Below are positions 32,408-61,252 of a stretch of DNA of 64,000 bases, one piece after another. The notes beneath the pieces were generated by a model, which saw only the letters and a list, made by a program, of their open reading frames with translations, made no database searches and was not told the DNA's origin. A program made the position numbers and the translations under genes. The DNA comes from Pelagomonas calceolata (taxonomy: Eukaryota). The stretch is taken from assembly GCA_918797485.1 (NCBI GenBank), contig CAKKNE010000001.1, positions 2,852,001 through 2,916,000 on the forward strand, given 5' to 3'. Position 1 is the stretch's first letter, and each line of letters begins with the position of its first letter.

Positions 32408-33281
32408 GTGCCCCGTACCGTTAACGGTACGGGGCACACAGGCCCTAGTGAGTTTTGCGCCACTAGCATTTAAGCTGTTTTGCGCCGCTCGTCAGAACGC
32501 TGTTCTTCGCGCTCGTCCTTTTAGCCCTTGTAAAAACGTTTCTCTCGCTCCCCGCGTTCCGATGAGCACCTTTTCAAAACCATCCGAGCCCATGCTGCCG
32601 CGAAACTGCCACCGATCTCTGTGCAGAGCGCTCACACGCGCGCACGCCAGCCGCACTTCATTCCGTGGACCGCGCACGCACAGCGCATAGCATGAGGACG
32701 TGATCCGCACACGTGTGGGATGCATACAGCTGTAGCAGACGACGACAACGACCTATCGGTTTCCCTCCTGAGCTCCGGCTGGTACACCCTGCGCACCCAC
32801 TGCGACACGCTACACAAGTCGAAAAGAGCAGTCGTCGCCGTCTGCGCCCGATCTGCTGCCTCGTGGCGCCGCGCGCTGTCAAAGCTCGGCGCTGCGGCGG
32901 CGTCCGCGACGGAGCACGACGACGTCAAAACCGTCAAACCTGCGGTCGCTGCGGCATCGTGCGCCGTCGTCGCGCTGCCCCGCTGCAGCGGCGACGAAGG
33001 CGTGCGTAGCGGCGCTCGCGAGCGGTGCTCGCCTGATCCCCGAGAAGCCCGCGGCGTAGGAGGAGCTGCCGCGCCGCACCCGGCGGTGGTGCGTCCTCAA
33101 GAACTGGGCGCTTAAGCCGGGCGTACTTTGCGTCGGCGAGTTGTGGACGTTGGAAGCGGAACGTCCGCTTGGCGCTGCCGCCGCCGGCGCGCCGCGCCTT
33201 GTAAAATGCAAGTGCCCGTGGCCCGTCAGCGTTGTGAAAACTGTCCTCACCAATTCATCAGCAACGCAGCTCCGGACCGTG
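32408..33281 (+). repeat. Palindrome-headed repeat, copy C (internally deleted)
   Basis: Starts with a 30-bp palindrome; similar to the reverse complement of about 52540-53320, then jumps into the Zn-ribbon coding sequence (CKMQVPVARQRCENCPHQF). Confidence 0.85.
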
Positions 33282-33512
33282 GAGCTGGGGCTGGAGCTGG
33301 AGCTTGGCCACAAATTTAGAAAGGATAAAATCAAAGAATTCCGACTGACTTGATGCTACGATCAATGTTGGATCGAGCGATGGATCGGGCGATGATGGCT
33401 CTCATTTCGACGTAGCTTAACATAGTAGTGCGGGTTTGTTATCCGGACATCGAGCTACCTCCCGCGCGCAACTGCTGACACACTACGCAGCTAATCCGCA
33501 GCGATACATAGC

Positions 33513-33983
33513 TTGCGCAGGAGTTCAGAAGCTTTGCGCACCTCTGCGCAACACCTGACACGAAGCGCGCAGGACACCATGTCCACGCTAGAGACCATGT
33601 CGGAGAAACCAAGTGTTGATGTGACCTTTACGGAGCAAAGCTTGCACGTGCAGCTCACCCTGCATAAGGCTGGGACAGTATGGCTAGATTGCGTTGAACC
33701 GCAGAGCGCGGCGCACGGACGCGTCAATGTGGGCACATCGCTGGTTGCGGTCAACGGCGCACGGATGGGGAAGCTATTTGGCCGGCAGGCCTGGGTTACC
33801 TTCTGTGAGCGTATCAGAAATATGCAACGACCGATGACACTCACATTCTCCTACTACCCCATTTCTGACGTGTCCTCTAGTCCATACTCGTCAGTGGTTG
33901 ACGACGAGTCCACCTATCGCCAAACTCCCTCCTTTTGGGCTACGGACCATTCCCTTGCCCCTGTTAGTTCCTCATCCTCTTGA
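33513..33983 (+). CDS. Small hypothetical protein, PDZ-like
   Basis: VNVGTSLVAVNG...RPMTLTF resembles the C-terminal half of a PDZ domain. Confidence 0.4.
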   Translation: MRRSSEALRTSAQHLTRSAQDTMSTLETMSEKPSVDVTFTEQSLHVQLTLHKAGTVWLDCVEPQSAAHGRVNVGTSLVAVNGARMGKLFGRQAWVTFCERIRNMQRPMTLTFSYYPISDVSSSPYSSVVDDESTYRQTPSFWATDHSLAPVSSSSS

Positions 33984-34211: not shown

Positions 34212-34422
34212 GTGCTCCCAAACAATTAACGGTACGGGTCACACCAGCCCTAGTGAGTTTTGCGCCACTAGCATTTAAGCTGTTTTGCGCCGCTCGTCAG
34301 AACGCTGTTCTTCGCCGCTCGCACTTTCCGCCCGCGTAAAAACGTTTCTCTCGCTCCCCGCGTTCCGATGAGCACCTTTTCAAAACCATCCGAGCCGATG
34401 CGGCCGCGAAACTGCCGCCGAC
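34212..34422 (+). repeat. Palindrome-headed repeat, copy D (end module only, left arm of the palindrome decayed)
   Basis: TTAACGGTACGGGTCACACCAGCCCTAGTGAGTTTTGCGCCAC... matches 32421-32615. Confidence 0.85.
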
Positions 34423-38571: not shown

Positions 38572-39058
38572 GGCCTTTTATCTGCCCCCACTACTCCCCG
38601 CGCCGTTAGCCTCCCAGATAAAGCTAAATCGGGATATTCCACAGTCGTCCGCATTTACAGAACAATTTTTGGAGTCTATACATGGGCAATACCCCGCATT
38701 TACATTGCTACTACAATCATGCGCTAGGGCCGAGAATAATGATTTAGACTCCCTATCCATTGCGGCCCCAGCGCGCACCGCGGAGAGAGAGAGTTGCTTA
38801 GTAACGGGGGGGGGTTTCACCCCCCGCCGTTAGCTAAGTAACGCACTCTCTTCCTGCGGAGCTAACCCGTGATGGTCAAATCTTGAGCGGCTAGGTGGCC
38901 TAGCTCTAAGCAAAGCAATCGACGCGACTAGTAGGTTTACGTTATTGCAAGTTGGCTGGGACTCTAGTCCGGAATAGAGCGTCCACTCTACTGAGCTATT
39001 GGTTGAAGGAGGTCGCTCCTATTACGGTGGGAAGAAGGGGATTCGGTGGGAGCGGCAC

Positions 39059-41446
39059 TCACTCGCAGGCCACGCGTTTGGCCCTCTTGTTGTCGACGGT
39101 CGCTGACTCGGCCACGAACAGCTCCCGCTTCTGGGCGCGGCGCGCGGTGCGCCGCGCCAGCATCGTTGGTTCCGGCGGCGCGTCCTCCTCCCCCTCCTCC
39201 TCCCGCTCCGAGGACACGGCGTCGCGGTCGAGGTCGTAGCCGATCATGGCCGGGCACTTCACGACGCGCAGGAAGCCCTTCTTGTAGTTGTGCAGCACGT
39301 CGCTCTTGCTGCCGCCCAGCGCGATGACGTCCGCTCCGCACTTGGCCTTCTTGTAGGCCTCGTAGCGCGTGTAGCTCGCCGACTCCGGGCGATTCGGGTT
39401 CGCCTGGGCGAACGCGATCTCGAAGCACGCGTTGACGAGCAGCATCTCCGCGACGACTTTGGGCGCGGCGCCATCCAGCAGCCACCGCACGCTCTCGGCA
39501 TGTTCCTCCCCCTCGTTGCCCACGGCGGCTGCCGCGGGCGGAGTCTCCTCCTCGGGCGCGGACGCGGCTTGGGGAGGGGGCGCGGGCGCGTCGCCGACCG
39601 CCACGCGCACGTCGGCCGCAGCGACAGTGTTGAACACGTCGGGCTCGTCGACCCACTCGACGTCGTAGGTCCCGTCGTCGTTCACCCGGTCGATGACGGC
39701 GCGGGACCACTGCCAGCCCCACTTCGCCTCGACGCGCGCGCCGACCGCAAAGGCTGGCAGCGCCGCTGCATCCGCCGCGGTTGCCTCCTCGCGCGCGGGG
39801 GGCGTCTTTCTCTTGGGCGGCGTCGCGGGCGCGGCCGCCACCGCCACCGCCACCGCCGCAGCCTTCGCCTGCCGCCAACCCGGCGGCGGTTCTGCCGCCC
39901 GTTGTACGGGCTGCAGCATCGGCGGCGCCGCGCGCGGCGGCCCCAGAATTGTCGCGCGCATCAGGTCCAGTGCGGAGGGCCGCGGCAGGTTTGTGCTCTT
40001 GAACCGCTTTTTGGGGCCGCGCGGCGGTACCGGCCGCGGCGCCGGCGCCGGCCACCGCCGCGGGATCGTCGCCGCCCCGACCCGGGTCACCTTGAGCGCG
40101 TCCTTCTTCTTCTTTTTCGGCACCGTGCGTTGCCGCGGCGCGGGCGCGGGCGAGGGCGCCGGCGCGCGCCGCTGCGCGGACAGCGCGTCGTCGTCGTCGC
40201 CGATTGATGCCGCGAACGACGAGAAGTCGTCATCACTAATAACACGGCGCTTCTTTGGCAGCACGGCCTCGCTGAGCTCCGCTGCTTGGCGCGCCGCCTT
40301 GGCCTTGAGGCGTCTCCTGTGTTCTTCGATCCAGCCCTGGACCTCGTCGACGGCCGAGTACTCGCAATCATCAATAGTGCCCTTGTCGCCAAACTTCGCG
40401 TCATGGTAGAAACAGACCGGCTCATCGTGCTCGGCGTCGAAGCTGACCTTTAGGACGCGCCACCGCTCGCCGTCGTCGACAAATTCTACACCCTTGAGTT
40501 GGGTGTTCAGTCTCGCGATGAGTCTCTCGTCGTACTCAACGCCGTTTTCCGGGATTTCTGGGTGATCGGTTGCCTCGAAGGCTGCCGCGGCCATGAAGTC
40601 GTCGTTCTCTCTCTCAAATAGGTCGTCCGGCGCGACCGGTTGCTTGTCGTCGTCGTCGTTGCTCGCAGCGGGCGGCGCCGATGGCGCTGCGGGCGGCGCC
40701 GCCGCCGCGGGCGGCGCGGCGGCCTCGCTGAGGCTGGCGAACTTGGCCAGCTTCTTCTTCTTCTTCTTCTTCTTCTTCTTCTTCCTCTTGGGGTGCGCTG
40801 GCTCGGCCAGAACGGCAGCCGGCGGTAGTGCAGCTGGCGCAGGTACGTCGCCGACCACCGCGCGCACGTCGGCCGACGCGACAGTGTTGAACACGTCGGG
40901 CTCGTCGACCCACTCGACGTCGTAGGTCCCGTCGTCGTTCACCCGGTCGATGACGGCGCGGGACCACTGCCAGCCCCACTTCGCCTCGACGCGCGCGCCG
41001 ACCGCAAAGGCTGGCAGCGCCGCTGCATCCGCCGCGGTTGGCTCCTCGCGCGCGGGGGGCGTCTTTCTCTTGGGCGGCGTCGCGGGCGCGGCCGCCACCG
41101 CCGCCGCCGAAGCCGCAGCCTTTGCCTCCCTCTTGCGCGCCTTTTTCACCGCGGACTTTGACTTGATCTTCTTCTTGTGTTTGCCCGTCCTGGTCTTCTT
41201 CGGGGCGAGTTCCAGCACGCCGCCCAGTGACGACCTCGCGGAGTCCAAGACGGCCGCGGCCGCGCCCGCGACCGCGCCGCCCACCTTCTCGGCGAGCTCC
41301 TTAGTCGTTGACTGCATCTCCGCGAGGACGGCGTCCGGCGGCCCGTCGTCGGCCGTCATCACGCTCATCAGGCTCAGGCCTAAGAGACCGGCACCTACAG
41401 CCAGCGATGCTTTGCCGATCGTCAATCTCGTTCCTTTGACCGACAT
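39059..41446 (-). CDS. Protein with an N-terminal hydrophobic anchor, Lys-rich tracts, two Tudor/Agenet-like domains and a C-terminal NPxRP-RYE-YK domain
   Basis: FAVGARVEAKWGWQWSRAVIDRVNDDGTYDVEWVD occurs twice; likely start MSVKGTRL. Confidence 0.7.
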   Translation of the reverse strand: MSVKGTRLTIGKASLAVGAGLLGLSLMSVMTADDGPPDAVLAEMQSTTKELAEKVGGAVAGAAAAVLDSARSSLGGVLELAPKKTRTGKHKKKIKSKSAVKKARKREAKAAASAAAVAAAPATPPKRKTPPAREEPTAADAAALPAFAVGARVEAKWGWQWSRAVIDRVNDDGTYDVEWVDEPDVFNTVASADVRAVVGDVPAPAALPPAAVLAEPAHPKRKKKKKKKKKKKLAKFASLSEAAAPPAAAAPPAAPSAPPAASNDDDDKQPVAPDDLFERENDDFMAAAAFEATDHPEIPENGVEYDERLIARLNTQLKGVEFVDDGERWRVLKVSFDAEHDEPVCFYHDAKFGDKGTIDDCEYSAVDEVQGWIEEHRRRLKAKAARQAAELSEAVLPKKRRVISDDDFSSFAASIGDDDDALSAQRRAPAPSPAPAPRQRTVPKKKKKDALKVTRVGAATIPRRWPAPAPRPVPPRGPKKRFKSTNLPRPSALDLMRATILGPPRAAPPMLQPVQRAAEPPPGWRQAKAAAVAVAVAAAPATPPKRKTPPAREEATAADAAALPAFAVGARVEAKWGWQWSRAVIDRVNDDGTYDVEWVDEPDVFNTVAAADVRVAVGDAPAPPPQAASAPEEETPPAAAAVGNEGEEHAESVRWLLDGAAPKVVAEMLLVNACFEIAFAQANPNRPESASYTRYEAYKKAKCGADVIALGGSKSDVLHNYKKGFLRVVKCPAMIGYDLDRDAVSSEREEEGEEDAPPEPTMLARRTARRAQKRELFVAESATVDNKRAKRVACE

Positions 41447-41683
41447 GGGATGCCGCTCGAAGCCGTTTGATGTGGTGCTGAGAGCTGGGGCAGCCCGCGC
41501 GAAGTTCTGTCGCCTCTCTAAGCGCGCTCCCCAAAAGAGTAATTTGCGCGGCTCCATTTGAATGAATTAAAAAAAAAAAAATTCAAATTACTCTTTTGGG
41601 GAGCGCGCTTAGAGAGGCGACAGAACTTCGCGCGGGCTGCCCCAGCTCTCAGCACCACATCAAACGGCTTCGAGCGGCATCCC

Positions 41684-42577
41684 ATGTCGGTCAAAGGAAC
41701 GAGATTGACGATCGGCAAAGCATCGCTGGCTGTAGGTGCCGGTCTCTTAGGCCTGAGCCTGATGAGCGTGATGACGGCCGACGACGGGCCGCCGGACGCC
41801 GTCCTCGCGGAGATGCAGTCAACGACTAAGGAGCTCGCCGAGAAGGTGGGCGGCGCGGTCGCGGGAGCAGGCGCGGCCGTCTTGGACTCCGCGAGGTCGT
41901 CACTGGGCGGCGTGCTGGAACTCGCCCCGAAGAAGACTAGGATAGGCAAACACAAGAAGAAGATCAAGTCAAAGTCCGCGGTGAAAAAGGCGCGCAAGAG
42001 GGAGGCAAAGGCTGCGGCTTCGGCGGCGGCGGTGGCGGCCGCGGCCGCGACGCCGCCCAAGAGAAAGACGCCCCCCGCGCGCGAGGGGGAGGCCCCGCCC
42101 GCGGCGGCCGCCGTGGGCAACGAGGGGGAGGAACATGTCGAGAGCGTGCGGGGGCTGCTGGATGGCGCCGCGCCCAAAGTCGTCGCGGAGATGCTGCTCG
42201 TCAACGCGTGCTTCGAGATCGCGTTCGCCCAGGCGAACCCGAATCGCCCGGAGTCGGCGAGCTACACGCGCTACGAGGCCTACAAGAAGGCCAAGTGCGG
42301 AGCGGACGTCATCGCGCTGGGCGGCAGCAAGAGCGACGTGCTGCACAACTACAAGAAGGGCTTCCTGCGCGTCGTGAAGTGCCCGGCCATGATCGGCTAC
42401 GACCTCGACCGCGACGCCGTGTCCTCGGAGCGGGAGGAGGAGGGGGAGGAGGACGCGCCGCCGGAACCAACGATGCTGGCGCGGCGCACCGCGCGCCGCG
42501 CCCAGAAGCGGGAGCTGTTCGTGGCCGAGTCAGCGACCGTCGACAACAAGAGGGCCAAACGCGTGGCCTGCGAGTGA
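41684..42577 (+). CDS. Inverted, internally deleted paralog of 39059-41446 (Tudor domains lost, frame kept)
   Basis: Near-identical to the reverse complement of 41050-41546 and about 39025-39545. Confidence 0.7.
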   Translation: MSVKGTRLTIGKASLAVGAGLLGLSLMSVMTADDGPPDAVLAEMQSTTKELAEKVGGAVAGAGAAVLDSARSSLGGVLELAPKKTRIGKHKKKIKSKSAVKKARKREAKAAASAAAVAAAAATPPKRKTPPAREGEAPPAAAAVGNEGEEHVESVRGLLDGAAPKVVAEMLLVNACFEIAFAQANPNRPESASYTRYEAYKKAKCGADVIALGGSKSDVLHNYKKGFLRVVKCPAMIGYDLDRDAVSSEREEEGEEDAPPEPTMLARRTARRAQKRELFVAESATVDNKRAKRVACE

Positions 42578-42980
42578 GTGCCACTCCCACCGGGCGAATC
42601 CCCTTCTTCCCCACCGCCGACTGAAGTAATTCTAGAGTTACTTCAGTAAGACCCCCTACTACTAGGGTTACTTTGGATCATACTAGCGCGATATACTTAC
42701 CTCGCCTGGATCGAGCCATTAAGACCGTGGCGTTGTTGTTGGAAAGCGCGCCCGTCGACGTATATTAACCAGACTTAATTTCAGCAGAAGTCCAAAGTGA
42801 AACGTGAAATCATTTGATGATGTGGTTGTTTAAAATGCATTCGTGTGTGCGTGGTACCTCCACAATGACTCCCCTCAAGTGTTCCACGAATTCACTGCTA
42901 GTACTTCTGCTGGGTTCTTCCCGGAGCTTTTGGACGTCGAACATAGCGGCCAAGTAGCTCCAGCGGGAGGAAGTACTTAG

Positions 42981-44835: not shown

Positions 44836-45900
44836 ATGTCGAGCATCAGCAAGAACAAGTCGCTCAAGGCCGCGCTGGCCCTCGGCGGCGGCCTCGTGAC
44901 CGTCGGATTGATGGCTGCCATGATGAACGACGACGACGGACCGCCCGAGGACGTCGTCGACGGCGTGCAGTCGACGATGACCGGCCTCGTGGACAAGGCG
45001 GGCGGCGCGGTCGCGGCCATGGCCGCGTCCGTTGGCGACGCCGTCAAGGCGTCGCTCGGCGGCGTGCTGAAGAGCTCGGCGCCGCCAGCCGCGAAGAAGG
45101 CCAAGAAGAAGAAGACGGCGAAGACGAAGGCGGCGTCCAAGGCAAAGAAGGCGCGCAAAGCGGCGAAGGCTGCCAAAGCGGTGGCGGCGCCCGTGACGCC
45201 GCCGAAGGCGCCGCGCGCGGCGCCCACGCAGGAGGAGCCGGTCGTGGCGGCCGCGCCGCCGGCACCCGAGGCCGCGCCGCCCGCGGAGGCGCCCACGACG
45301 GCTCCGCCGGCCTTCGCGGTCGGCGCGCGCGTCGAGGCGCGGTGGGCCGGGACGTGGTACGGCGCCGTCGTCGATTCAACGCACGGGGACGGGAGCTACG
45401 AGCTCGAGTGGCTCGACGACCCCAACGTCTTCAACACCGTGGCGGCGGCCGACGTGCGCGCGGCGGCGGCCGACGAGCCCGCGCCGCCGCCGCCGCCGGA
45501 GGCCGAAGAGGAGGCGGCGGCCGCGCCCGAGGAGGAGGCGCCCGAGGCTGCGGCCGCGGCCGCGGCCGAGCAGCCCGCGGACGACGAGAGCTGCGAGGAG
45601 GCGGCCGACGTGCAGGGCCTGCTCGACGGCGCCGCGCAGCGCGTCATCGTCGACATGCTCCTCGCGAATGCGAGCCTTAAGATCGCGTTCGACCAGGAGA
45701 ACCCGAAGCGCCCGGACTCGGCGAGCTTCAAGCGCTACGAGGCCTACAAGGCGGCCACGTGCGGCGCCGACGTGCTGGCGTGGGGCGGTTCCAAGAGCGA
45801 CGTGCTCCACGACTACCGGAAGGGCTTCCTCCGCGTGACGCGCTGCCCGGTCATGGTCGCCTACGACCTCGACCGCGACGCAGACGTAGGGTTGAGTTAG
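44836..45900 (+). CDS. Anchor + Tudor + NPKRP-RYE-YK domain protein; diverged paralog of 39059-41446
   Basis: FAVGARVEARWAGTWYGAVVDSTHGDGSYELEWLD; IAFDQENPKRPDSASFKRYEAYK. Confidence 0.75.
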   Translation: MSSISKNKSLKAALALGGGLVTVGLMAAMMNDDDGPPEDVVDGVQSTMTGLVDKAGGAVAAMAASVGDAVKASLGGVLKSSAPPAAKKAKKKKTAKTKAASKAKKARKAAKAAKAVAAPVTPPKAPRAAPTQEEPVVAAAPPAPEAAPPAEAPTTAPPAFAVGARVEARWAGTWYGAVVDSTHGDGSYELEWLDDPNVFNTVAAADVRAAAADEPAPPPPPEAEEEAAAAPEEEAPEAAAAAAAEQPADDESCEEAADVQGLLDGAAQRVIVDMLLANASLKIAFDQENPKRPDSASFKRYEAYKAATCGADVLAWGGSKSDVLHDYRKGFLRVTRCPVMVAYDLDRDADVGLS

Positions 45901-45940
45901 GGTTGAGTTAAAACCGAGGGGCGGGGCCGAGGGCGCGGGC

Positions 45941-47400
45941 GTGGGCGCCGCGCCACCCGAGCGAGGATCCGTATGTCGCCAGGTCAGGCGCGAAATCGAC
46001 GGTCTCCCGCTCGTAGAACGCTCGCTTGTTGGCCGCTGCGCGCAGCCGCTTCGCCGCGGCTTGTATGCCGTCGCGGTGGGCGCGCAGCCGCTTCTTCTCC
46101 TTGCGGGCTGCCTTGCGTGCTTCGCGGTCCGGGGCTGCGTTGCTGATGAACTGGTGAGGACAGTTTTCACAACGCTGACGGGCCACGGGCACTTGCATTT
46201 TACATTTCGGGCACGTCTTCTTCGGGGTGCGGGCGGCCTTCTGGTTTCGTACTTCAACGTGGGTCAAATCTTGTAGAGTCATCATGAACACTATGTTTCA
46301 CAGATGTCCGCGCTACTCCGTGCGCTCCGTGCACTTGCGCCCTTTGCTGCTTGAAAATTTTCTAGACATTTTGGCGGCTCGCCGGCACCTCGCTGTTACA
46401 TACAGCAAATGTCGATCTCGACACCGTGCACGAATTGATCCCATGACACGTTGTCATTCTCCCTCGACGCCTATCCATCGAAGAGCTCCAAGACCGCGCC
46501 GCCGCTCACGCCCGACTGCTCGTGAGCCAATGAGCACTCGACGCGTCTTTCGTCCGCCGCATGCACTATTGGTTACGCGTGTGTCGCCGAACCAGAGCAA
46601 CGCAGCGCTCTTAATAGGTGCACGTGCCAAAAACTCGCAAGCCACGTCGGCTCGGCACCGGTCGCCAGGCGCGGCGCGCAGGCGGCGGCAGCGCCAAGCG
46701 CACGTTCCGCTTCCAACGTCCACAAACTCGCCAACGCAAAGTACGCCCGGCTTAAGCGCCCAGTTCTTGAGGACGCACCACCGCCGGGTGCGGCGCGGCA
46801 GCTTCTACGCCGCGGGCTTCTCGGGGATCAGGCGAGCACCGCTCGCGAGCGCCGCTACGCACGCCTTCGTCGCCGCTGCAGCGGGGCAGCGCGACGACGG
46901 CGCACGATGCCGCAGCGACCGCAGGTTTGACGGTTTTGACGTCGTCGTGCTCCGTCGCGGACGCCGCCGCAGCGCCGAGCTTTGACAGCGCGTGGCGCCA
47001 CGAGGCAGCAGATCGGGCGCAGACGGCGACGACTGCTCTTCTCTTGCGTAGCGTGTCGCAGTGGGTGCGCAGGGTGTACCAGCCGGAGCTCAGGAGGAAA
47101 ACCGATAGGTCGTTGTCGTCACCTGCTACTGCTATATGCATCCTACACGTATGCGAATCGCGTCCTCATGCTGCGCGCTGCGCGTGCGAGGTGCACGGGA
47201 TGAAGTGCGGCTGGTGTGCGTGCGACATGAGATGGTGCGGGTTAGTGTCGGCGGCAGTTTCGCGGCAAGGTGGGCTCGGATGGTTTTGAAAAGGTGCTCA
47301 TCGGAACGCGGGGAGCGAGAGAAACGTTTTTACGGGGACGGGAAGGGCGAGCGGCGAAGAACAGCGTTCTGACGAGCGGCGCAAAACAGCTTAAATGCTA
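45941..47400 (-). repeat. Palindrome-family repeat, copy A (about 1.46 kb; lacks the palindrome; contains truncated Zn-ribbon ORF 45908-46291)
   Basis: Direct repeat of 51797-53265. Confidence 0.9.
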
Positions 47401-47546
47401 CCGCGAGCTCGGCTCCGGCCCGCCGGTCCGCGTAGTGCATCGAGCCTCGCAGCGTTTTCTCACGTCGCACGCACTCCAAGCGGCTCGCCGACCCCTCCGC
47501 GACGGGGCCGCCACGGCTCTAGTAATCATAGTTTTGGATCATAGTC

Positions 47547-47939
47547 TTAAACGCGGGCAGCCTCCGTCGCGGCGGCCCCGGGCGGCCGTGCGGGCGCCGG
47601 CGAGGCGTCGGCCCGGATGCGGTCGACAGGCACGTCGGCCTCGCAATCACCGGTGTCAAAGGTCACGGTGTACTTGCGAACGCGCCGCGTTTTATTGGCC
47701 TGGGCCTGGCAGGCGACCTTATACGCGGACCCCCGGTCGTAACGTTTCGCCATGACCTGCACCTCATTGACGGCCGTGACGATCCCCGGCGACCACGCGG
47801 CGCCGAAGAGGGTGTCTTCCATCTCGCCCGTGTGCGGGTTGCGGAACCGCCTGACGTGCTGGAGCTTGACCGCCGCGACGCGGTTGCCGACCTTGAAGAA
47901 CTCCTGCGGCGGCGCCGGCTGCGACGATGAGCAGCCCAT
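47547..47939 (-). CDS. Small Tudor-like protein with an N-terminal acylation motif (MGCSSS)
   Basis: FKVGNRVAA...WSPGIVTAVN...YTVTFDTGDCEADVPVDRIR. Confidence 0.55.
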   Translation of the reverse strand: MGCSSSQPAPPQEFFKVGNRVAAVKLQHVRRFRNPHTGEMEDTLFGAAWSPGIVTAVNEVQVMAKRYDRGSAYKVACQAQANKTRRVRKYTVTFDTGDCEADVPVDRIRADASPAPARPPGAAATEAARV

Positions 47940-48355
47940 GATGCGACAGATCGGTGATCCACCACAGGCTGCCTTCCCAGAACCAGACCAAGGAGTTGCA
48001 AGGAGTTACCCCCACCACACTTTCATCAGTAGCAGCCCTTTGAGCACACAACTGGACGCAGCCTTGCCAAGCTGGCTGCCCACGGCTTCCCTACTCTGGC
48101 CAGACTCCGCGCGCGGCCGGTCTGGCTGATCCTGCTAGGCATCCCTAGTGTCTTTCTGCCGCTAACCCTATTATTTGTCACCCCCCCCAGGGGCTCCGCC
48201 CACTAGTTCTAGCACCGCGAGCTGGACCTTATAAGGTCCAGCTCGACAGATATAAAAAATCGAGTCGGTCAGGGTTAGGGTTAAATATCCACCAGGAAAT
48301 TACGTGAAGATGCCAAGGACGCGGTTTCCCCTTCATTCTTTTCGTGAGGTTGAGT

Positions 48356-49918
48356 CTAGCCGGGGGCAATTTTTTGGGCGGCACGCGCCGCTCCGATCAT
48401 GTCACGGTTCAGGTAGCACGAAACCAACGAGCGGACACGGAACCAGCCGGGATCATCACTTTCGTACCACGGCTCTGTTGCGCAGTGCGGCGCCGAAGGA
48501 TTAAACAAGAGTATGTCGCCCTGACGCAGCGAGACGTAGATTCCCTCGGGTCCACTGGCAGGAAAATAGAAACCGCTTCCACGCACGTTTTGGCCGTGTG
48601 CCCGGGACTGAGCACGTGCGCGCTTACGGGGCGGTCTCACCGTCTCGTCATTCGAACCCCACGCGCAAGCGACCATAAACGCAAGACCAGGATCATCGTC
48701 AACATGTGCTAAAATGGCACCGAGATCCAACCAGACGGCCGCCAGTAAGGGTACACTGGGGGCTTCCGTCCTGCCTTCGCCGAGCCAATCCTGCATGTTG
48801 AAGGCCAGCTTCGCCATTTCGTGCGGCAAAAGCTGGGCATAGAGGTAGGGTCGAGCTTCCTGGTATATTTTCTCCAAGGTGCATCGTAGCTCCTCGTTGA
48901 GGCGTGCGCGCCGCGCCGACGGCGCTGCTGGCTCGTAAAACAAATTCCTGACTGATGTTTTCCGGTCAAGGTGGGGTGGTGCGCGGTACCCGCTGTGCCA
49001 CGCCCGCTTGTAAACTCTGCTACGTGCCTTGGATTGTGCTTGCTTGGAACCGCTGAACTCGTCCACCTCATCAGCGGTCTCACTCGCGATGGCCGCGAGA
49101 ATGCGCGCTAGGTCGACGGAGGGTTTGGCGAACGGTCGAAACTCGCTGTTTAGCTTGCCACGGACTACGACGAAGTCGAGCTCGGCATCTGGTGTCGGCC
49201 CGGCGCAAATCGCATCAGCGCCCCGCCTGAAGTGTGAGTTTTTCGGGATGGGCCTGAGGGTCGTCTTTGTATAATCTTCCGGCCAGGTTACGCGTAAGCG
49301 CGTAATGTCGGCGAGGATGCGAAGGCGCATCGGAAACTTTTTTGCATTGAGCATGTGTCGCAACTCAGGATCACGGTCAAGAAGCGGACGCAAAATCTCC
49401 TCGCACTTTGCCGTAGTAACGCAGAGCGACGGTGGCGAACAACCTTTGCAAGCAAATTTGCAGACGGCCGCTGCAGCAGCCTTGTCTAGCGCGTGCTCGA
49501 GGTGCTCCCGCACCTCGGGGCGCGCCATGTCCGGCGCGGTGGTCCAAAAATTACCAGTGTGGCCTCGTTGTCCCGTCCTGCCGTTTGCATCGATTCGCAG
49601 CTGCGAGCCCGCATGATTCCCCCCCACGCTGCTCCTGCTCGGCAGGTGGCATGCTCCCTTGAGCCGCGCTAGCTGATCCTCTCGCGCACGCTCCCCAAAC
49701 AGCGAGCCGTCGCGTACGACTGCGGCAACGATTTGCGCCCAGGCGAGGGCAAATTTCTTCCCATCACCTAGTTTTCTCCGCTCGAGATGCTCCTGCGCGC
49801 GCAGATCCTCCAGTGTTGCGGCCGCATCATGGAAACCACTCCGACGTAGCACCTCGAGAAGATCTCCCTGCAGTGTTCTCTTGTCACAGGGCAGCTTTGC
49901 GTCGTCGGAAGATGCCAT
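48356..49918 (-). CDS. 2OG-Fe(II) dioxygenase, TET/JBP-like
   Basis: AHVDDD (HxD), GSGFYFP, LRQGDILLFNPSAPHCAT (distal His) and RVRSLVSCY, in the order typical of the TET/JBP double-stranded beta-helix. Confidence 0.7.
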   Translation of the reverse strand: MASSDDAKLPCDKRTLQGDLLEVLRRSGFHDAAATLEDLRAQEHLERRKLGDGKKFALAWAQIVAAVVRDGSLFGERAREDQLARLKGACHLPSRSSVGGNHAGSQLRIDANGRTGQRGHTGNFWTTAPDMARPEVREHLEHALDKAAAAAVCKFACKGCSPPSLCVTTAKCEEILRPLLDRDPELRHMLNAKKFPMRLRILADITRLRVTWPEDYTKTTLRPIPKNSHFRRGADAICAGPTPDAELDFVVVRGKLNSEFRPFAKPSVDLARILAAIASETADEVDEFSGSKQAQSKARSRVYKRAWHSGYRAPPHLDRKTSVRNLFYEPAAPSARRARLNEELRCTLEKIYQEARPYLYAQLLPHEMAKLAFNMQDWLGEGRTEAPSVPLLAAVWLDLGAILAHVDDDPGLAFMVACAWGSNDETVRPPRKRARAQSRAHGQNVRGSGFYFPASGPEGIYVSLRQGDILLFNPSAPHCATEPWYESDDPGWFRVRSLVSCYLNRDMIGAARAAQKIAPG

Positions 49919-50839
49919 CCGAGGCGAGTCCGCCGCAGTGGATAGGGAGGGCGGCAGTAAGCCGCGGATGCTTGCCGAGGCGCCCTCCTGGGGCAGCCTG
50001 GGTGCAGGCAGGGCGCAAATTGCTCTGCCTCAAGGGAAAGAGGGAAAGCCCAAGCTGGGGCACAGCTAAAGATCAATACTTACGTACCGAGCTCCGGAGC
50101 CTTTGCGCCGGAAGCTTCTAGTTCTACGCAGCCCTAAGCCTCGCCCGGGCCGGGGGCTGCGGTGTACACTAATGTACCGCATGCGGTACATTAGTGAAAC
50201 TTCAACTTGAGTTCATTGTAAAAAAAAAATCTAGATAATTAGAAACATGTCTGAATCATCTTCATCCTTGCGACTTATGGAACAACTTTACAAGAGCGAT
50301 GAGGAACGCTGCTCAATTTGGCAAAGTCACAAATCCAAGTCGAAGCTGCCCACGGAGAAGGCCGAGTAGCCCTTTCGCTCGACGATGCGCTGGAGGTCCT
50401 CGATGGAGTGCTCCTCGCGCCAGTTGTGGATGATTTCGACGTCGCCTTGATAGGCCATGTCAATGTCCTCGTGCGCCGACCAAATTGATTTAACAATTCT
50501 ACTTGAAAAATTCCAGGAACAAACAATCTGTATTCATAGCCATTTTTTTGGGTTAGCGACCATCGAAGCGGGCTTTGGTGGCCTCGACCAATTCAACGCA
50601 TCGCTCAAGGGCGTCGTGGCGGATCTGCTAAAGCGCGCCGCGGACACGCCACGCGGCGGGCCATCGTTCTCCGTGCGGTCGTCGACGAGTAATTTGTGAT
50701 CTGTGGTACTCGCCCTTAATCAAACCCAGTAGTGCACGGGTTTTACATAGAGGGGAATTACTCCGATTTATAACCAACCCCCAAATAGAACCACGACCAG
50801 CACTGCGACGCCATGACCGCCTGCTGACGAACAACCCAG

Positions 50840-52147
50840 TCACTTCAGAAAACCGGACAGCGTGGACTGAACAAGCGCGCTAGCGCGCGCCGCCATTCCG
50901 CGAGGTCGTGCATCGGGAGCGACCGGGGGCGTTTCTTCGTCTTTCATCCAGAAGACGAGGTAAATCGTATTCATGGCTTCGTGCACGCCGTTTCCAGCAG
51001 CCTTCAATGTATTTGTGAAGCCCTCGTATTTGAGCCTCTTGACGTATGCTTGCAAATCCGTCTCGATTTTCTGTGCAGTACCCTTGCCCTCGACTTGAAA
51101 AAGGGCGAACATGCGTTTCTTGGTTCCGTTGCTCGGATCTTTCTGGCCCAAGCGGACGAACGGAGCTTGCTTCGTCACGCCGATGTCGATGTCGTACCCA
51201 AGCCTCAAGAAGCATTGAATGACGCGAATCGACCAGTCTTGGTAGAGCCTAATAGCCTCTTCCTTCCTTGGATGCGTCTTGTAGACAGAATTTTTAATTG
51301 GATCCAACTTCCACGGTCCGCTCTTTGCGACCTCCTTCTCGCTCCCCCAGCTGTGCTCGTGGAGATCTGGTTCGTCACCTCCTCCCTCGATCAGCAATGC
51401 CAGCTCATTTATCACCACGCACGACCCACGACTTAACCGCTGCGACCGCTTCTTCCACATAGCGACCTCTTGCCTCAGAGACCGCTGCATCTCCTGGTAC
51501 TTGGCGCGCTCACGCGCGGCGGCTACCTCCAAAGCGGGAGCAGGCGGATACAGCGTGGGAGCAGGTGCCTCCGGCGCGACATCAATCTGCATGGGCGCCT
51601 CCGGCGCGACGGCTGGCGCATCCGGCAAGGCGACCGGCACATCCGGCGCGACATCCATCGGCATGGGCGCCTCTGGCGCAGACGCAGGCGTCTCCGGCAC
51701 TGCGGCCAAAACTGTCGGTTCGAAAACGGTTGGCTCCGCCGGCGCGACATCTAGCGCCTCGCGCGCAAGCGCCATCCCTTCCGTCGGAGCGGCCACGTGG
51801 GCGCCGCGGCACTCGTGCGAGGATCCGTGCGTCGCCAGATCAGGCGCGAAATCGACGGTCTCCCGCGCGTTGGCCGCTCGCTCGTTGGCCGCTGCGCGCA
51901 GCCGCTTCGCCGCGGCTTGTATGCCGTCGCGGTGGGCGCGCAGCCGCTTCTTCTCCTTGCGGGCTGCCTTGCGTGCTTCGCGGTCCGGGGCTGCGTTGCT
52001 GATGAACTGGTGAGGACAGTTTTCACAACGCTGACGGGCCACGGGCACTTGCATTTTACATTTCGGGCACGTCTTCTTCGGGGTGCGGGCGGCCTTCTGG
52101 TTTCGTACTTCAACGTGGGTCAAATCTTGTAGAGTCATCATGAACAC
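50840..52147 (-). CDS. Zn-ribbon + Pro/Ala repeats + coiled coil + GIY-YIG-like nuclease domain
   Basis: CPKC-x10-CENC; YDIDIGVTKQAPFVRLGQ...AQKIETDLQ...GFTN. Confidence 0.5.
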   Translation of the reverse strand: MFMMTLQDLTHVEVRNQKAARTPKKTCPKCKMQVPVARQRCENCPHQFISNAAPDREARKAARKEKKRLRAHRDGIQAAAKRLRAAANERAANARETVDFAPDLATHGSSHECRGAHVAAPTEGMALAREALDVAPAEPTVFEPTVLAAVPETPASAPEAPMPMDVAPDVPVALPDAPAVAPEAPMQIDVAPEAPAPTLYPPAPALEVAAARERAKYQEMQRSLRQEVAMWKKRSQRLSRGSCVVINELALLIEGGGDEPDLHEHSWGSEKEVAKSGPWKLDPIKNSVYKTHPRKEEAIRLYQDWSIRVIQCFLRLGYDIDIGVTKQAPFVRLGQKDPSNGTKKRMFALFQVEGKGTAQKIETDLQAYVKRLKYEGFTNTLKAAGNGVHEAMNTIYLVFWMKDEETPPVAPDARPRGMAARASALVQSTLSGFLK

Positions 52148-53320
52148 TATGTTTCACAGATGTCCGCGCTACTCCGTGCGCTCCGTGCACTTGCGCCCTT
52201 TGCTGCTTGAAAATTTTCTAGACATTTTGGCGGCTCGCCGGCACCTCGCTGTTACATACAGCAAATGTCGATCTCGACACCGTGCACGAATTGATCCCAT
52301 GACACGTTGTCATTCTCCCTCGACGCCTATCCATCGAAGAGCTCCAAGACCGCGCCGCCGCCCACGCCCGACTGCTCGTGAGCCAATGAGCACTCGACGC
52401 GTCTTTCGTCCGCCGCATGCACGGGCGTGTTGATTAGGCGTGTGTCACCGAACCAGAGCAACGCAGCGCCCTTGATAGGTGCACGTGCCAAAAACTTGCA
52501 AGCCGCGTCGGCTCGGCATCGGTCGCCAGGCGCGGCGCGCAGGCGGCGGCAGCGCCAAGCGCACATCCCGCTTCCAACGTCCACAAGCTCGCCGACGCGA
52601 AGTACGCCCGGCTTAAGCGCCCAGTTCTTGAGGACGCACCACCGCCGGGTGCGGCGCGGCAGCTCCTCCTACGCCGCGGGCTTCTCGGGGATCAGGTGCA
52701 CGTCGCTCGCGAGCGCCGCTACGCACGCCTTCGTCGCCGCTGCAGCGGGGCAGCGCGACGACGGCGCACGATGCCGCAGCGACCGCAGGTTTGACGGTTT
52801 TGACGTCGTCGTGCTCCGTCGCGGACGCCGCCGCAGCGCCGAGCTTTGACAGCGCGCGGCGCCACGAGGCAGCAGATCGGGCGCAAACGGCCACGACTGC
52901 TCTTCTCGACTTGCGTAGCGTGTCGCAGTGGGTGCGCAGGGTGTACCAGCCGGAGCTCAGGAGGGAAACCGATAGGTCGTTGTCGTCGCCTGCTACTGCT
53001 GTATGCATCCCACACTTGTGCGAATCGCGTCCTCATGCTGCGCGCTGCGCGTGCGAGGTGCACGGGATGAAGTGCGGCTGGCGTGCGCGCGTGTCAGCGC
53101 TCTGCACAGAGATCGGCGGCAGTTTCGCGGCAGCATCGGCTCGGATGGTTTTGGAAAGGTGCTCATCGGAACGCGGGGAGCGAGAGAAACGTTTTTAGAC
53201 GGGCGGAAAGGGCGAGCGGCGAAGAACAGCGTTCTGACGAGCGGCGCAAAACAGCTTAAATGCTAGTGGCGCAAAACTCACTAGGGCCTGTGTGCCCCGT
53301 ACCGTTAACGGTACGGGGCA
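51797..53320 (-). repeat. Palindrome-headed repeat, copy B (most complete; leads into the 435-aa ORF)
   Basis: 28-bp palindrome at 53293-53320; shared with copies A, C, D and E. Confidence 0.9.
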
Positions 53321-53581: not shown

Positions 53582-53794
53582 TGCCCCGTACCGTTAACGG
53601 TACGGGGCACACAGGCCCTAGTGAGTTTTGCGCCACTAGCATTTAAGCTGTTTTTCGCCGCTCGTCAGAACGCTGTTTTTCGCCGCTCGCCCTTTCCGTC
53701 CCCGTAAAAACGTTTCTCTCGCTCCCCGCGTTCCGATGAGCACCTTTTCAAAACCATCCGAGCCCACCTTGCCGCGAAACTGCCGCCGACACTA
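53582..53794 (+). repeat. Palindrome-headed repeat, copy E (end module only)
   Basis: Palindrome at 53582-53609, then sequence matching the reverse complement of about 47243-47400. Confidence 0.9.
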
Positions 53795-53813: not shown

Positions 53814-53900
53814 CTAACCCGACTCTCGCCCAACCCTAACCCTAACCCTAGTCTCATCCTAATCCTAACCCTTACTCGGACCCAATCCTAACCTCAACCT
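53814..53900 (+). repeat. Degenerate interstitial telomere-like (CCCTAA)n tract
   Basis: AACCCTAACCCTAACCCTAG...CCTAATCCTAACCCT...ATCCTAACCTCAACCT. Confidence 0.65.
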
Positions 53901-55355
53901 CGCGACAGATAAAAAAAAGTCGAGTCAGTCATTCCGATTCTAACGCGACGCGTTTCACCATTCGTTTTCGCGGGAAACGTGGGCGATTTTTTAATCGGGC
54001 TAAATTAGCACCAAACGTGCAGTAGCCGATCCCCATGGACCCCTGGCATTGCCCGGGCACCCTATCCGTAGCCAGATGCGGGTGAAGGTACTTTTGTGGG
54101 CCCCCAAACACAGCCAAAACGCACTGGGCGCGTCTTCGCGGTGGCATAGCAAGCGACCATCCCAGCCAATTGTAGATCTGCGACCGGTCAAATGTGGCCC
54201 AGGACCGTTGCTTTTGGCTGGGAAACGAACGTGTAGCATCGGATTCGAAAATAAGCAGCTAGGGGGGATTCCGTTGGAGCAAAAGACCATGCCCGCGCTC
54301 AAGTTTTCGACCTGTCCGGAAATTGGACCAGGCTTGGTTCCTACTCGTCCGCGGGACGGTTACGGATCGTTTTTCGGGCAGCGGAGGCAGGAGTAGGGGG
54401 TCGAGATCTTGGAGCCGGGCCTCGGCAAGGACTGCTAAATTTGTGCCTTTACCAGAGCGATACGCAATCCACTGAGAGAAAACAAATTGCGAGTGTCACG
54501 CGCGGATTGATTAGCGTTCCCAGCTCGAAAACTGCGGATGCTGCGCCTTTGTGGGCCCTGATAGAGCCTCGGACAGCTTAGCAGCTGCCTGGGTCGCGCG
54601 GCTGGCGCACGACGCGTCCGGCTGGCTCGGCGACCGTGTTCCGTCGCGGTGGCGCCGCATGGCTGCGCTGGCGCCGCGAAACGTTCCGAGCGGCTCTTGA
54701 CACACCCGCATCCGACTCGAGGCCTCCGAGAACGCCGCCCCAAAACCGCAGAGGCGCGCGCGTCGACGAGTCGCCGCGCCGCACCCGCCTCACCGCCCCA
54801 CCACGCCTCACCCTCCCCCTCAATCACAGGTACGACGATAACCCGCAATCTCAGCCCAAGCAGGTCAGTGTGCGAGTAATTTTGCAGCCACAGCGTTGGC
54901 AGACGTGCTCAACACGGTCGGAAGCATGCAGCGCTGCGCCGGTTTGGCGCGCCGTGGCTCTGACGCGCCAGGGGACCTCTGCCATCGTTTCCATCTGCCG
55001 CGGGCGCTAGCCCGTCCACGCCTGGTCCTTGGACCAAGACGGGCAGCGAAGCCATTGCGGGCGACCGGACAACCACGCTGGGGGAATCTGGTTGCTACAC
55101 ACAAAAATCTTGCCGAGCCGTGACTCGTCACGCTGGCCATGGACCTCTGGTCCCGGCCGCGGCGCTGCTCGCGGACGTGCGCCCTCGACGCTATCGCCGC
55201 GACGCCGTCTCCGTGTGAGCGGCGCGGCGATGGCGTGGCGCCGCTGGCACGGGACATGATGGATTTAGTACTTATCTACACACACACAACGCAAGCGAGA
55301 GGCGCGCGCGCCGCGGCAGGCCCGGGACCGTAACACAACGCAGGCAGAGACAAGG

Positions 55356-56372
55356 ATGAAGCTCGCCGTCGCACTGGCGGTCCTCCCCGCGGCCGCGGCG
55401 TTCGTCGGCCCGGCGGCCGCGCCCGCCGAGACGCGGCTGCGGGAGACCAAGGCGGACCTCGAGGCGCTGGCCAAGGAGCTCAACCCGACGGTCGGCTTCT
55501 ACGACCCGCTGGGGCTCAGCTCCCAGAACTTCTGGGGCAAGAGCGAGGAGGAGACCATCGGCTTCCTGCGCCACGCCGAGATCAAGCACGGCCGCGTTGC
55601 GATGGCGGCCTTCTCGGGCTACGTCGTCCAGGCGAACGGCTTCCACTGGCCCTGGGCCATGACCATGGACGGCCGGTCCTTCGACGTCGCCGGCTCGCCG
55701 CCGGAGCAGTGGGACGCGATCCCGCTGAACGCGAAGCTGCAGATCGTCGCGTTCGTCGGCTTCCTCGAGCGCGCCGCGGCGCCCGCCCCGCGCCGCGCCG
55801 CCCCGCCCCGCCCCGCCCGCCGGCCGCCCGCGACGCGCCGGCCGCGCCCGCGCAGGTTCTACAGCGAGATCGCGGGCACGCACTACATGAAGGGCGGCGT
55901 GCCGGGCAAGTACCCCAGCTTCGCCGAGACCGGCTTCGACGCCGTCATGCCCTGTGTGGAAATCAACCAGTGTGTCGGGCGCTCATTTCTCGGCGATGAC
56001 GCGGCCGTGCTGTGCTGGCTCCGTCGAGCGGCGAGGAATCGGCACCGCCACGCCATCGAGCAGGCATCGCGTCGATGGCGTGGAGGTCGACGCGACGATG
56101 CAGCACGAACGCGCCGTAAAATTTTGATTTCCACACAGGTCATGCCCGTCGACCTCTACGACCCCGCCGGCCTCTGGGGCGACATGTCGGCCGAGAAGTC
56201 GAAGCGCGGCCTCGCGGTGGAGATCAACAACGGCCGCGCAGCGATGCTCGGCATCTTCGGCTTCATGGCCGCCTCGAAGGTCGACGGCTCCGTGCCCGCG
56301 CTGTCCTTCATCAAGCCCTACGCGGGCGACTACATGCAGCCCTTCGAGGGGAACTTCGACCTGTTCGCGTAG
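55356..56372 (+). CDS. Fucoxanthin-chlorophyll light-harvesting (LHC/FCP) protein; introns 55769-55855 (GC-AG) and 55944-56138 (introner)
   Basis: Signal peptide with AAAF motif, FYDPLGL, AEIKHGRVAMAA, VEINNGRAAMLG. Confidence 0.95.
   Translation: MKLAVALAVLPAAAAFVGPAAAPAETRLRETKADLEALAKELNPTVGFYDPLGLSSQNFWGKSEEETIGFLRHAEIKHGRVAMAAFSGYVVQANGFHWPWAMTMDGRSFDVAGSPPEQWDAIPLNAKLQIVAFVGFLERAAAPAPRRAAPPRPARRPPATRRPRPRRFYSEIAGTHYMKGGVPGKYPSFAETGFDAVMPCVEINQCVGRSFLGDDAAVLCWLRRAARNRHRHAIEQASRRWRGGRRDDAARTRRKILISTQVMPVDLYDPAGLWGDMSAEKSKRGLAVEINNGRAAMLGIFGFMAASKVDGSVPALSFIKPYAGDYMQPFEGNFDLFA
55952..56138 (+). mobile_element. Introner (non-autonomous TIR element) in the LHC gene, TSD GTCATGCC
   Basis: TIRs CTGTGTGGAAATCAA / TTGATTTCCACACAG; perfect TSD at 55944-55951 and 56139-56146. 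Confidence 0.95.
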
Positions 56373-56459: not shown

Positions 56460-57765
56460 CTATCGGCCCCGCCGGCGCTCGCGGCGCGAGCGCGAGCGCG
56501 AGCGCGAGCGCGAGCGGCGGCGGGCGCGCCCACGGTCGCGGCGGCGGCGGCGGCGCTTGCGGCCGCGGGACGCGTCGGAGGAGTCCGAGGACTCGTCCGA
56601 CGACGACGACGTCTCGTCGCGGCGCTTGGCGACGCCCCAGCCGCCGATGCTCGGCGCCGCCGCGAGGCGCTCGCGGTGCTGCGCCTCCCGCGCGGCGCGC
56701 TGCTGCGCCGGGTTCAGGAACGCGAGCGCCGGGTCCGGCCCCGCGGGGGGCGCCGGCGCGCCCCCGCCGGCGCCCGCGCGCGCGAGCGCGGCCAGGACGG
56801 CGGGCGACGTGACGCCGGCGAGGCCGGCCCCGGGCGCGGGGCCGCCCGCCTCGCCGGCGCGCAGCGCCGACGCCTGCGTCGCGCGGAACGCGAGCAGCGC
56901 CGCGGCGGGGTCGCGCGCGCCCGCGGGCGGCAGCGGCGTCGGCTGGTTCGACTGCGCGAAGAGCCGCGGCTGCATGGCCTTCTCGACGCGCAGCGCGGCG
57001 CCGCAGACCATCGTCCCGTTCATCGCCACCGCCGCCTCGGCCGCGGCCGCGTCGAGGAAGTCGACGAAGCCGTAGCGGCCGTCGCCGGCCACGCGCACGT
57101 CGCGCACGCCCCCGATGCACTCGAAGATCTGGCGCAGCACGGCCGGCGACGCGCCGGGGCTCAGGTTGCCCACGTGGATCGTCCGCGAGGGCGCGAGCAG
57201 CGGGTTCGCGTTCTGGGGCACGCCCGTGGACGTCACGGCTGTGCTGCCCATGAGCTGCGCGGCCTCGGAGAAGCCCGCGAACGCGGCGGCGGGCGCGGGC
57301 GCGGTCCCCGGGCCCGCGCCCGGGAGCTCGCCGCCTGCGCGAATCGACCGGTGAGCCGGGCGCGCGCGACAATTCTCGACGACGTCCCTTCTCGGCGAGA
57401 ACGCGGCTGCGTCGGCCGGAACGAGCGGCCGTAGGCCACAACGCCACGCCATCGAGCTGGCGGCGCGTCGATGGCGCGGAGGCCACGATGCAGCACTGGC
57501 GAAGACGCGTCGCGACGCTTTGATTTGTGCACTGCTCGCCGCGGCAGCGCGAGATGACGCCCACGAGGAACGCCGACGGGTTCCGCACGGAGGCCAGGTT
57601 GCTGGCGAGAAATCTGTCGACGACCACGGCCGCGAGCGGCTCGGGCAGCGCGGCGAGGTCCTGGAGGACCTTGGGGTCGAGCGCGTTCGCCTCGATCAGG
57701 CCGGCGTCGACGGCGCCCTGCAGCCGGGCAGCGAGGGCCGGGGGGAGGCTGCTGTTGCCAAACAT
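56460..57765 (-). CDS. RNA-binding protein with an hnRNP Q/R acidic-domain-like N-terminus, an RRM and an RS tail; intron 57335-57542
   Basis: VRNPSAFLVGVI; RTIHVGNL (RNP2); RYGFVDF (RNP1); RSRSRSRS. Confidence 0.8.
57335..57534 (+). mobile_element. Decayed introner in the RRM gene, TSD CTCGCCGC
   Basis: TSD at 57327-57334 and 57535-57542; decayed TIRs; internal CGCCACGCCATCGAGC...CGCGTCGATGGCG shared with the other copies. Confidence 0.85.
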
Positions 57766-60640: not shown

Positions 60641-60846
60641 TAATAAATAATAAATTAATTATGGCGGCGGCCGGGTAGCTAGGCGGCCTAGCTCTAAGCA
60701 AAGCAATTATTAAGGAAGCCCCCGCGGCGGGGACCTCGCGGCTAGGCAGCCTAGCTCTAAGCAAAGCAAGACCTAAAAAAGGAACAAGCTCCTAGTAAGA
60801 GCCTTCTCCCTGCTCGGTCAGGATGCCCAACCGGAGCTAGTAAATA

Positions 60847-61182
60847 AAAAAGGTATGAACCACTTCAGGGTCACCTGCCCTGAGGGCAGCTAACCCTGGA
60901 GGAGTTCATGCCTTTTTCCCTGCCGGGGGCTGCTCCGCAAGGGTGCCAAATCCGGCGTGGGGGGTGATGGTTCGGGTTTAAGACTTTTTGATTCTTATAA
61001 ACCACTGATTTCGGGTTTTGGGGATGGTTTATAAGAATCAAAAAGTCTTAAACCCGAACCATCACCCCCCACGCCGGATTTGGCACCCTTGCGGAGCAGC
61101 CCCCGGCAGGGAAAAAGGCATGAACTCCTCCAGGGTTAGCTGCCCTCAGGGCAGGTGACCCTGAAGTGGTTCATACCTTTTT
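60847..61182. mobile_element. Foldback/MITE-like element: 158-bp inverted arms with a 20-bp spacer
   Basis: 60847-61004 reads as the reverse complement of 61025-61182; flanks are AGTAAATA / AATAAATA. Confidence 0.9.
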
Positions 61183-61252
61183 AATAAATAATTCAAGTTG
61201 GAAGGAATATCCTAAAGGAAAAGGACATACACCAAGCCTCTTCTAACGCGCA

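Follow-up and report, generated by a model that had tools for sequence, protein, structure and literature searches.

The present study examined a window of 64,000 nucleotides from Pelagomonas calceolata (contig CAKKNE010000001.1, positions 2,852,001 to 2,916,000 of the forward strand, assembly GCA_918797485.1). Its minus strand carries an open reading frame (ORF) of 520 aa whose product is a 2-oxoglutarate (2OG)-Fe(II) oxygenase, and two palindromes, H1 and H3, lie on either side of it. The reading proposed here, to which we give about even chances as a whole, is that of a divergent TET/JBP-type dioxygenase encoded at a single locus, amid a patchwork of repeats with hairpin tips that borders a putative centromere. 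At least four metagenome loci (L001-L004), among the matches listed, carry the 5' end of the gene. The central features are as follows.

48356..49918, minus strand: 2OG-Fe(II) dioxygenase gene, probably TET/JBP-like, 520 aa; predicted metal ligands H405, D407 and H478; predicted 2OG-binding residue R496
48218..48245, no strand assigned: palindrome H1, 14-bp arms without a spacer, 110 bp past the stop codon; kept in L001; adjoins a high-copy repeat
50167..50201, no strand assigned: palindrome H3, 15-bp arms; forms the tip of a multi-copy repeat, with the sequence common to its copies on the side facing away from the gene; in L002 and L003, not in L001 or L004

The perfect part of H3 occupies 50167-50196, has no spacer and ends 248 bp before the ATG; both palindromes thus stand where the first-pass annotation had placed them. 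The gene is real and intact. As had been claimed, the ORF starts with an ATG and has no internal stop, and the motifs HxD, GxxFYFP and GDILLF...H are seen as H405-x-D407, GSGFYFP and GDILLF...H478. The further motif R..SLV..Y had been counted from R494, which was wrong, since Ser or Cys replaces R494 in 3 of the 12 full-length variants compared, whereas R496 (R-S-L-V-S-C-Y) is invariant in all five family members. Those variants belong to a cluster of 178 near-identical sequences that the searches returned together with one relative at 69% identity and three distant ones (P0020, P0028 and P0031). All four real relatives (24-69% identity) keep H405, D407, H478, T481, R496 and S500; D409 and E482 are likewise invariant across the five family members. 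An H-x-D/E...H triad with a distal Arg is the signature of the 2OG-Fe(II) superfamily (PMC11572971; the sources cited by PMC number were available in part), and it is present in 5/5 members as H405, D407, H478 and R496. The 12 variants carry 1-4 substitutions each, none of them in the catalytic set, and the four codons that differ in L001-L003 leave the amino acid unchanged. From 13 matches the repeat proteins P0029 and P0030 were dropped as spurious, and P0003 and P0021-P0027, apparently frameshifted or partial versions of the dioxygenase gene, were kept out of the profiles. Further searches with the family profile and with P0028 gave no additional relatives, and viral contigs held no close relative of the dioxygenase. 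A separate protein, P0035, joins the N-terminal part of a P0028-type dioxygenase to a BTB domain that replaces the catalytic strands; it comes from a single contig and may be a chimera.

Profile comparison places the protein nearest to the TET/JBP enzymes among the families compared. The sets were nine phage TET/JBP proteins, six AlkB proteins (E. coli AlkB and five plasmid homologues) and three PF13640 proteins as a P4H-type control. In the hidden Markov model comparison that the first-pass annotation had proposed, the family scored 53-58 against TET/JBP (HHalign probability 89-93%), 22 against AlkB (1.5%) and 34-35 against PF13640 (28-42%), with a maximum of 21.9 in 40 column shuffles. Subsets of five sequences gave 38-51 versus 21-23. 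In the ESM Atlas, Tet_JBP was named in 23/30 matches of the whole protein and in 30/30 named matches of residues 225-520 (top score 0.96; 211/256 features common), two results of one method that count as one source of evidence. Among the relatives, P0028 matched Tet_JBP at E 0.037 (13.7 bits versus a cut-off of 34.9) and P0031 matched the Tet-like family 2OG-FeII_Oxy_6 at E 0.15, far under the cut-off; none of the relatives matched the AlkB or P4H families in the Pfam scan. These profile scores, Atlas matches and weak Pfam matches support a TET/JBP-like enzyme, as named at first pass, and do not prove it; structure does not separate the families. In one phage control locus (L005, 6082-9022), genes for ParB, Tet_JBP and a TET-associated glycosyltransferase stand in a row.

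The residues follow a similar pattern. The protein has the same H-x-D...H...R set as TET/JBP members such as the phage gp2-like proteins and Naegleria NgTET1 (PF12851), and it resembles them in the G-x-x-aromatic-x-F-P and GD-hydrophobic-F strands, in H-x-x-T and in the aromatic residue at R+6. That aromatic residue occurs in 5/5 family members and 9/9 phage TET/JBP proteins, while Arg stands there in 6/6 AlkB; Thr at H+3 occurs in 5/5, 8/9 and 1/6, respectively. The family differs from TET/JBP in having R-x3-S instead of R-x-S and H-x-D-x-D instead of H-x-D-x-x-D/N. In addition, a helical region of about 100 residues with no identified fold precedes the catalytic domain, and no partner glycosyltransferase or methylase was found in the window. 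Judged by its sequence, the protein is likely a divergent TET/JBP-type enzyme, and a TET/JBP-like function is fairly probable. It would be an irregular member, hence the word variant, which is used because it falls below the Pfam cut-off and lacks R-x-S.

The DNA around the gene is a mosaic of repeats. H1 and H3 fold as DNA hairpins (z about -4.1), and they are not chance products, since 30 order-2 Markov shuffles of the window yielded no palindrome arm longer than 11, let alone one of 14. The first-pass annotation omitted three palindromes of the same size, members of a third family, H2, at 32408, 53293 and 53582, with a half copy at 34226. Such palindromes are therefore a feature of the whole repeat island. 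Copies of H2 have sequence in common from the outer edge or the centre of the palindrome inward, and none outside. The other features of the mosaic are these.

48182..48217, no strand assigned: piece of about 36 bp of a very high-copy genomic repeat, with two CTAG; other copies continue differently on both sides
48246..48282, no strand assigned: short motif and TTAGGG-like tract between the stop codon and H1; a related motif occurs at 53896-53944 and in L004
50275..50482, minus strand: reading-frame fragment, continued further 5' in L003; its junction lies at 50482
50840..52147, minus strand: 435-aa ORF with an N-terminal zinc ribbon (UPF0547, E 4e-4, under the cut-off)
51796..53320, minus strand: repeat copy 2, with H2 at its tip (53293-53320), upstream DNA and the 5' part of the 435-aa ORF
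45940..47400, minus strand: repeat copy 1, the unit of copy 2 truncated at both ends, without H2
47547..47939, minus strand: 130-aa ORF with a weak Tudor-like match (E 0.17); cluster members include MMETSP transcriptome entries
32408..33285, plus strand: third partial copy of the H2-tipped unit, internally deleted
53582..53794, plus strand: short H2-tipped copy facing away from repeat copy 2

The 1.46-kb direct repeats that had been described on both sides of the gene are there, at 45940-47400 and 51796-53265, with 94.6% identity over 1473 columns. They are partial copies of the H2-tipped unit, a unit that includes the start of the 435-aa ORF; being partial gene copies, they were ruled out as long terminal repeats. 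In some contigs the 36-bp repeat is arranged in tandem, its copies joined by a 17-nt linker. Viral contigs contained neither the H2 palindrome nor the 36-bp repeat, which was likewise missing from prokaryote genomes. TTAGGG-like tracts lie beside junctions in the island at 45890-45912, 48270-48282 and 53830-53880. A 10-bp direct repeat (47400-47409 and 48214-48223), with only these two plus-strand copies in the window, marks two independently defined junctions around the 130-aa ORF.

Sequencing depth separates the gene from these repeats. In three culture runs, one unitig covers 48189-50195 or 48267-50195, and its depth (15.5, 186.8 and 540) equals that of the next unitig (16, 181.8 and 537), although contig depth is not copy number. 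The bin that holds 48182-48217 reaches 80-90x the depth of the gene in the three culture runs, with loose ends, among those listed, before 48181-48183 and behind 48217; the H3 bin is 4-8x deeper than the gene, with loose ends, again among those listed, before 50168 and behind 50201. These depths and loose ends indicate that H3 caps a multi-copy repeat directed away from the gene, and that H1 adjoins a high-copy repeat. In the wild loci, H3 is present in L002 and L003; L001 and L004 diverge from the window at 50167 and share another upstream stretch, and L003 diverges at 50482. Downstream, L001 retains H1 and the 130-aa ORF and then continues like window positions 32464-33682. On copy number and neighbourhood, also named for checking at first pass, the gene shows no sign of amplification relative to its neighbours in the culture runs, and its flanks vary among wild loci. 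In L004, an H2-family fragment and the dioxygenase gene's 5' end flank a 2171-aa ORF (1350-7865, minus strand), which by eye appears to fuse a solute-binding domain with membrane segments and leucine-rich repeats.

Each palindrome is probably the tip of a repeat of its own, non-autonomous and placed beside the gene by insertion or rearrangement, rather than one of two paired ends of a TET cassette. As to the class of these repeats, non-autonomous HUH-type elements are tentatively favoured. A hairpin at the very 5' end characterizes Helitron2 (PMC3627910), and a hairpin with CTRR at the 3' end characterizes Helitron1 (PMC11417382). The H2- and H3-family repeats resemble Helitron2/HLE2 (PMC3627910, PMC11417382) in ending at a hairpin palindrome, in that H2 copies start with T, and in having no target-site duplication (TSD). 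They differ in that H2 has neither a T|T site nor a partner inverted repeat nor RepHel: the T flank was seen in 0/3 H2 copies, and the terminal hairpin of H2 had no partner of at least 9 nt in 30-56 kb. The 3' mark of Helitron1 (hairpin, CTRR, T) is seen after H1 and H2 and not after H3, and the CTAG lies within sequence common to other repeats. RepHel was found neither in the island nor in the rows of the repeat-masked annotation up to early chromosome 6, and a literature search on Pelagomonas and Helitron gave nothing relevant.

Several results weigh against a TET/JBP-type enzyme at a single locus, and most of them concern the family. Pfam, PHROG and PDB sequence searches gave no match for the 520-aa protein, and neither the protein nor its C-terminal parts reached the curated cut-off of PF12851. 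The TET/JBP set also scored 52 against the PF13640 control, so that a score of 53 can be reached between different 2OG families; moreover, this set was seeded from a phage gene chosen with the family's own motifs, which biases the comparison. The R-x-S of 9/9 phage TET/JBP proteins is replaced by R-x3-S-x-[YF] in 5/5 family members, and H-x-D-x-D is found in 5/5 family members and 5/6 AlkB but in 0/9 phage TET/JBP proteins. Two structure models of the protein are poor (mean pLDDT 44.8 and 49.4). These low-confidence models show the double-stranded beta-helix fold class, with 44 chains at Z >= 8 and listed rows that are almost all 2OG oxygenases or their fold. NgTET1 ranked second in both fold searches (Z 8.7, root-mean-square deviation 4.3, 181 aligned; Z 10.0, deviation 4.8, 184 aligned), yet in such models ALKBH1, AviO1 and prolyl hydroxylases were level with it to within 1 Z. 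Foldseek put FTO and PHD2 first with no E <= 0.001, and no TET chain was among the matches listed. These tied or leading folds, together with H-x-D-x-D, the missing R-x-S and the high control score, would suit another 2OG-Fe(II) oxygenase (either a base demethylase resembling AlkB or a hydroxylase of proteins or small molecules) whose likeness to TET is a generic signal of the C-terminal strands. AlkB has the fold class and H-x-D-x-D in common with the family; however, its R-x5-R on the last strand, present in 6/6 AlkB, is missing in 5/5 family members, and its profile score of 22 is at the level of the shuffles. The 30/30 Atlas matches and the weak Pfam matches of the relatives, all to Tet families, also speak against such an oxygenase, which we consider unlikely. 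On the genomic side, a neighbouring stretch has about half the depth of the gene in two runs, so two copies are possible, and the flanks differ in 3/4 wild loci, which fits a mobile passenger as well. In favour of a living gene, six RNA runs from four studies contain 0.69-0.82 of the sampled words of 47400-51800, a word count that may include carried-over DNA and is neutral as to strand and transcript extent; four runs with next to no words were left out. As the ORF makes up 36% of that interval, part of it is probably present in those RNA runs.

The first-pass annotation regarded the gene as a mobile cassette ending at the two palindromes, and a composite bounded by the 1.46-kb repeats can be considered beside it. 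Both palindromes do lie within 250 bp of the ORF, and a single unitig covers the stretch between them in the culture runs. However, H1 and H3 share no sequence, the terminal inverted repeat (TIR) match was 4/20, no exact TSD was found for six boundary pairs, H3 is missing in 2/4 loci, and H3 is multi-copy whereas the gene is not. As for the 1.46-kb repeats, each copies part of another coding unit, of which a third partial copy lies at 32409-33285. A cassette of either kind is thus largely refuted and very improbable. The absence of a KDZ transposase, already observed at first pass, was borne out: 62 nearby frames of at least 135 aa contained no match to a transposase, Rep or helicase. The marks of KDZ or other DDE transposons with TET genes (transposase, TIR and/or a 2-8-bp TSD) were accordingly absent at the boundaries and frames searched. 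Alternatively, the gene may be a passenger of a non-autonomous rolling-circle element (Helitron-like or other HUH) that ends at H1 and is moved by a transposase elsewhere; there it would shield elements from methylation silencing. On the minus strand, CTAG occurs 5 and 11 nt after H1, the second followed by T, like the 3' ends of HLE1 (PMC11417382). There is no TSD, a gene fragment lies at 50275-50482, and the flanks vary upstream in L001/L004 and in L003 and downstream in L001. Helitron1 and Helitron2 with TET genes are known in fungi (PMC12730594), and Replitrons have been reported in Pelagophyceae (PMC10288648). Against this, the CTAGs lie within a high-copy repeat whose other copies have no H1 after them, the shared sequence of the H2 family follows CTAG, the reverse of HLE1, and the three culture runs show no amplification of the gene over its neighbours. 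Nor did the 62 frames hold a Rep, helicase or transposase match, and neither PF14214 nor 'Helitron' appears in the rows of the species annotation up to early chromosome 6. The differing flanks make mobility as a passenger conceivable; we regard it as unlikely. Fungal transposons with TET genes include KDZ, hAT7, PHISTA, EnSpm, ESTA, IS3EU, Plavaka and Helitron1/2 (PMC12730594). They likewise place a TET/JBP-like gene amid mobile-looking DNA, and their very divergent types (PE) likewise came to light only through profile or structure comparison (PMC12730594). Unlike them, the P. calceolata gene has no transposase, TIR or TSD, lies in a stramenopile host and shows no sign of amplification.

The dioxygenase gene probably forms a single locus within these hairpin-tipped repeats. 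The gene order of the window (LisH, SAM synthetase, Rab, ion channel, Tudor-like ORFs, light-harvesting protein, hnRNP Q/RRM, PDZ, RPB4 and PP2C) corresponds to Pca_1p15440-15720 on chromosome 1, by comparison with supplementary table rows of the published P. calceolata annotation (PMC9481584). The rows between the Tudor genes and the light-harvesting gene have no function assigned. Per-kb GC content is 44-60% in the first 30 kb of the window and 53-77% past 31 kb, and centromeres of this species are described as one low-GC region per chromosome, with unclassified repeats there (PMC9481584). The gene thus appears to belong to a repeat island that lies at about 32-54 kb of the window and borders a putative centromere region. 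The unclassified repeats described for this genome may include the palindrome-tipped ones. A connection with the DNA methylase gene that lies near Pca_2p15320, an L29-domain gene, was discarded, as the neighbours mismatch and the window maps to chromosome 1.

Elsewhere in the window, a 1-kb foldback (41044-42086, 96%) lies within nested inverted duplications (39025-42616) of a Tudor-like-domain gene family, the ORFs of which are at 39059-41557, 41558-42577 and 44836-45900. A 760-aa ORF at 36289-38571 has a Tudor-like stretch by eye, without Pfam support, and other unannotated frames precede it. Between RPB4 and PP2C is a 342-bp foldback (60844-61185; 161-bp arms, 99%, 20-bp spacer). The large foldbacks, and the occurrence of the 10-bp repeat at two junctions, also suggest rearrangement of the replication type. 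Related inserts of 150-210 bp within genes (55952-56139, 61453-61656 and 57342-57496) have the size of the introner elements reported for the species. An Rfam search found no ribozyme and three sub-threshold miRNA matches on a foldback.

If the protein acts as a TET/JBP-type enzyme, Fe would be bound by the predicted ligands H405, D407 and H478, and 2OG by the predicted R496, with S500 replacing the usual serine at R+2. Activation of oxygen by Fe(II) and 2OG, followed by hydroxylation of a methyl group, is established chemistry of the superfamily. Here Fe(II) and 2OG would activate oxygen, and the predicted reaction is hydroxylation of the 5-methyl group of 5-methylcytosine (5mC) or thymine in DNA, whereby methyl marks on local repeats may be removed or converted. 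As a first guess, 5mC is slightly preferred to thymine, because the species annotation lists an SNF2-linked C5 methylase (Pca_1p15180, 25 rows before the SAM synthetase row). In the pelagophyte Aureococcus, DNMT5 goes with linker methylation (PMC9998398). Fungal transposon-borne TET/JBP proteins have been proposed to counter silencing (PMC12730594), whereas in dinoflagellates, where CryTJ1 and AmpTJ1 are TET/JBP thymidine hydroxylases, 5-hydroxymethyluracil (hmU) produced by a TET/JBP enzyme silences repeats (PMC11572971). By analogy, a role in either direction, anti-silencing or silencing, is possible in P. calceolata. Its annotation up to early chromosome 6 contains C5 DNA methylases and no Tet_JBP gene. 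No paper describing TET/JBP in pelagophytes or Aureococcus was found in a search that did not cover the surveys of Iyer et al., which may include stramenopiles. These surveys (2009, 2013 and 2014) reportedly list stramenopile TET/JBP proteins.

In sum, this study found an intact and so far unannotated 2OG-Fe(II) oxygenase gene of likely TET/JBP type beside palindrome-tipped repeats. Because no self-contained mobile cassette was shown, its significance is placed below that given at first pass. A wider picture, which we consider rather improbable, is that an undescribed class of non-autonomous elements, each ending exactly in 28-30-bp perfect palindromes, reshuffles genes of the Tudor-like, zinc-ribbon and TET/JBP-like kinds along the borders of centromeres. 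The enzyme would then found an algal R-x3-S subfamily with a rewired 2OG pocket, write 5-hydroxymethylcytosine or hmU at those borders and help set the boundary between low-GC centromere and methylated arm. Pelagomonas, a marine picoalga, is one of the most abundant eukaryotes of the ocean. If the dioxygenase is active, this abundant alga would gain a way to oxidise DNA bases, and the TET/JBP enzymes would gain a subfamily with altered active-site motifs that is missed by standard Pfam scans.

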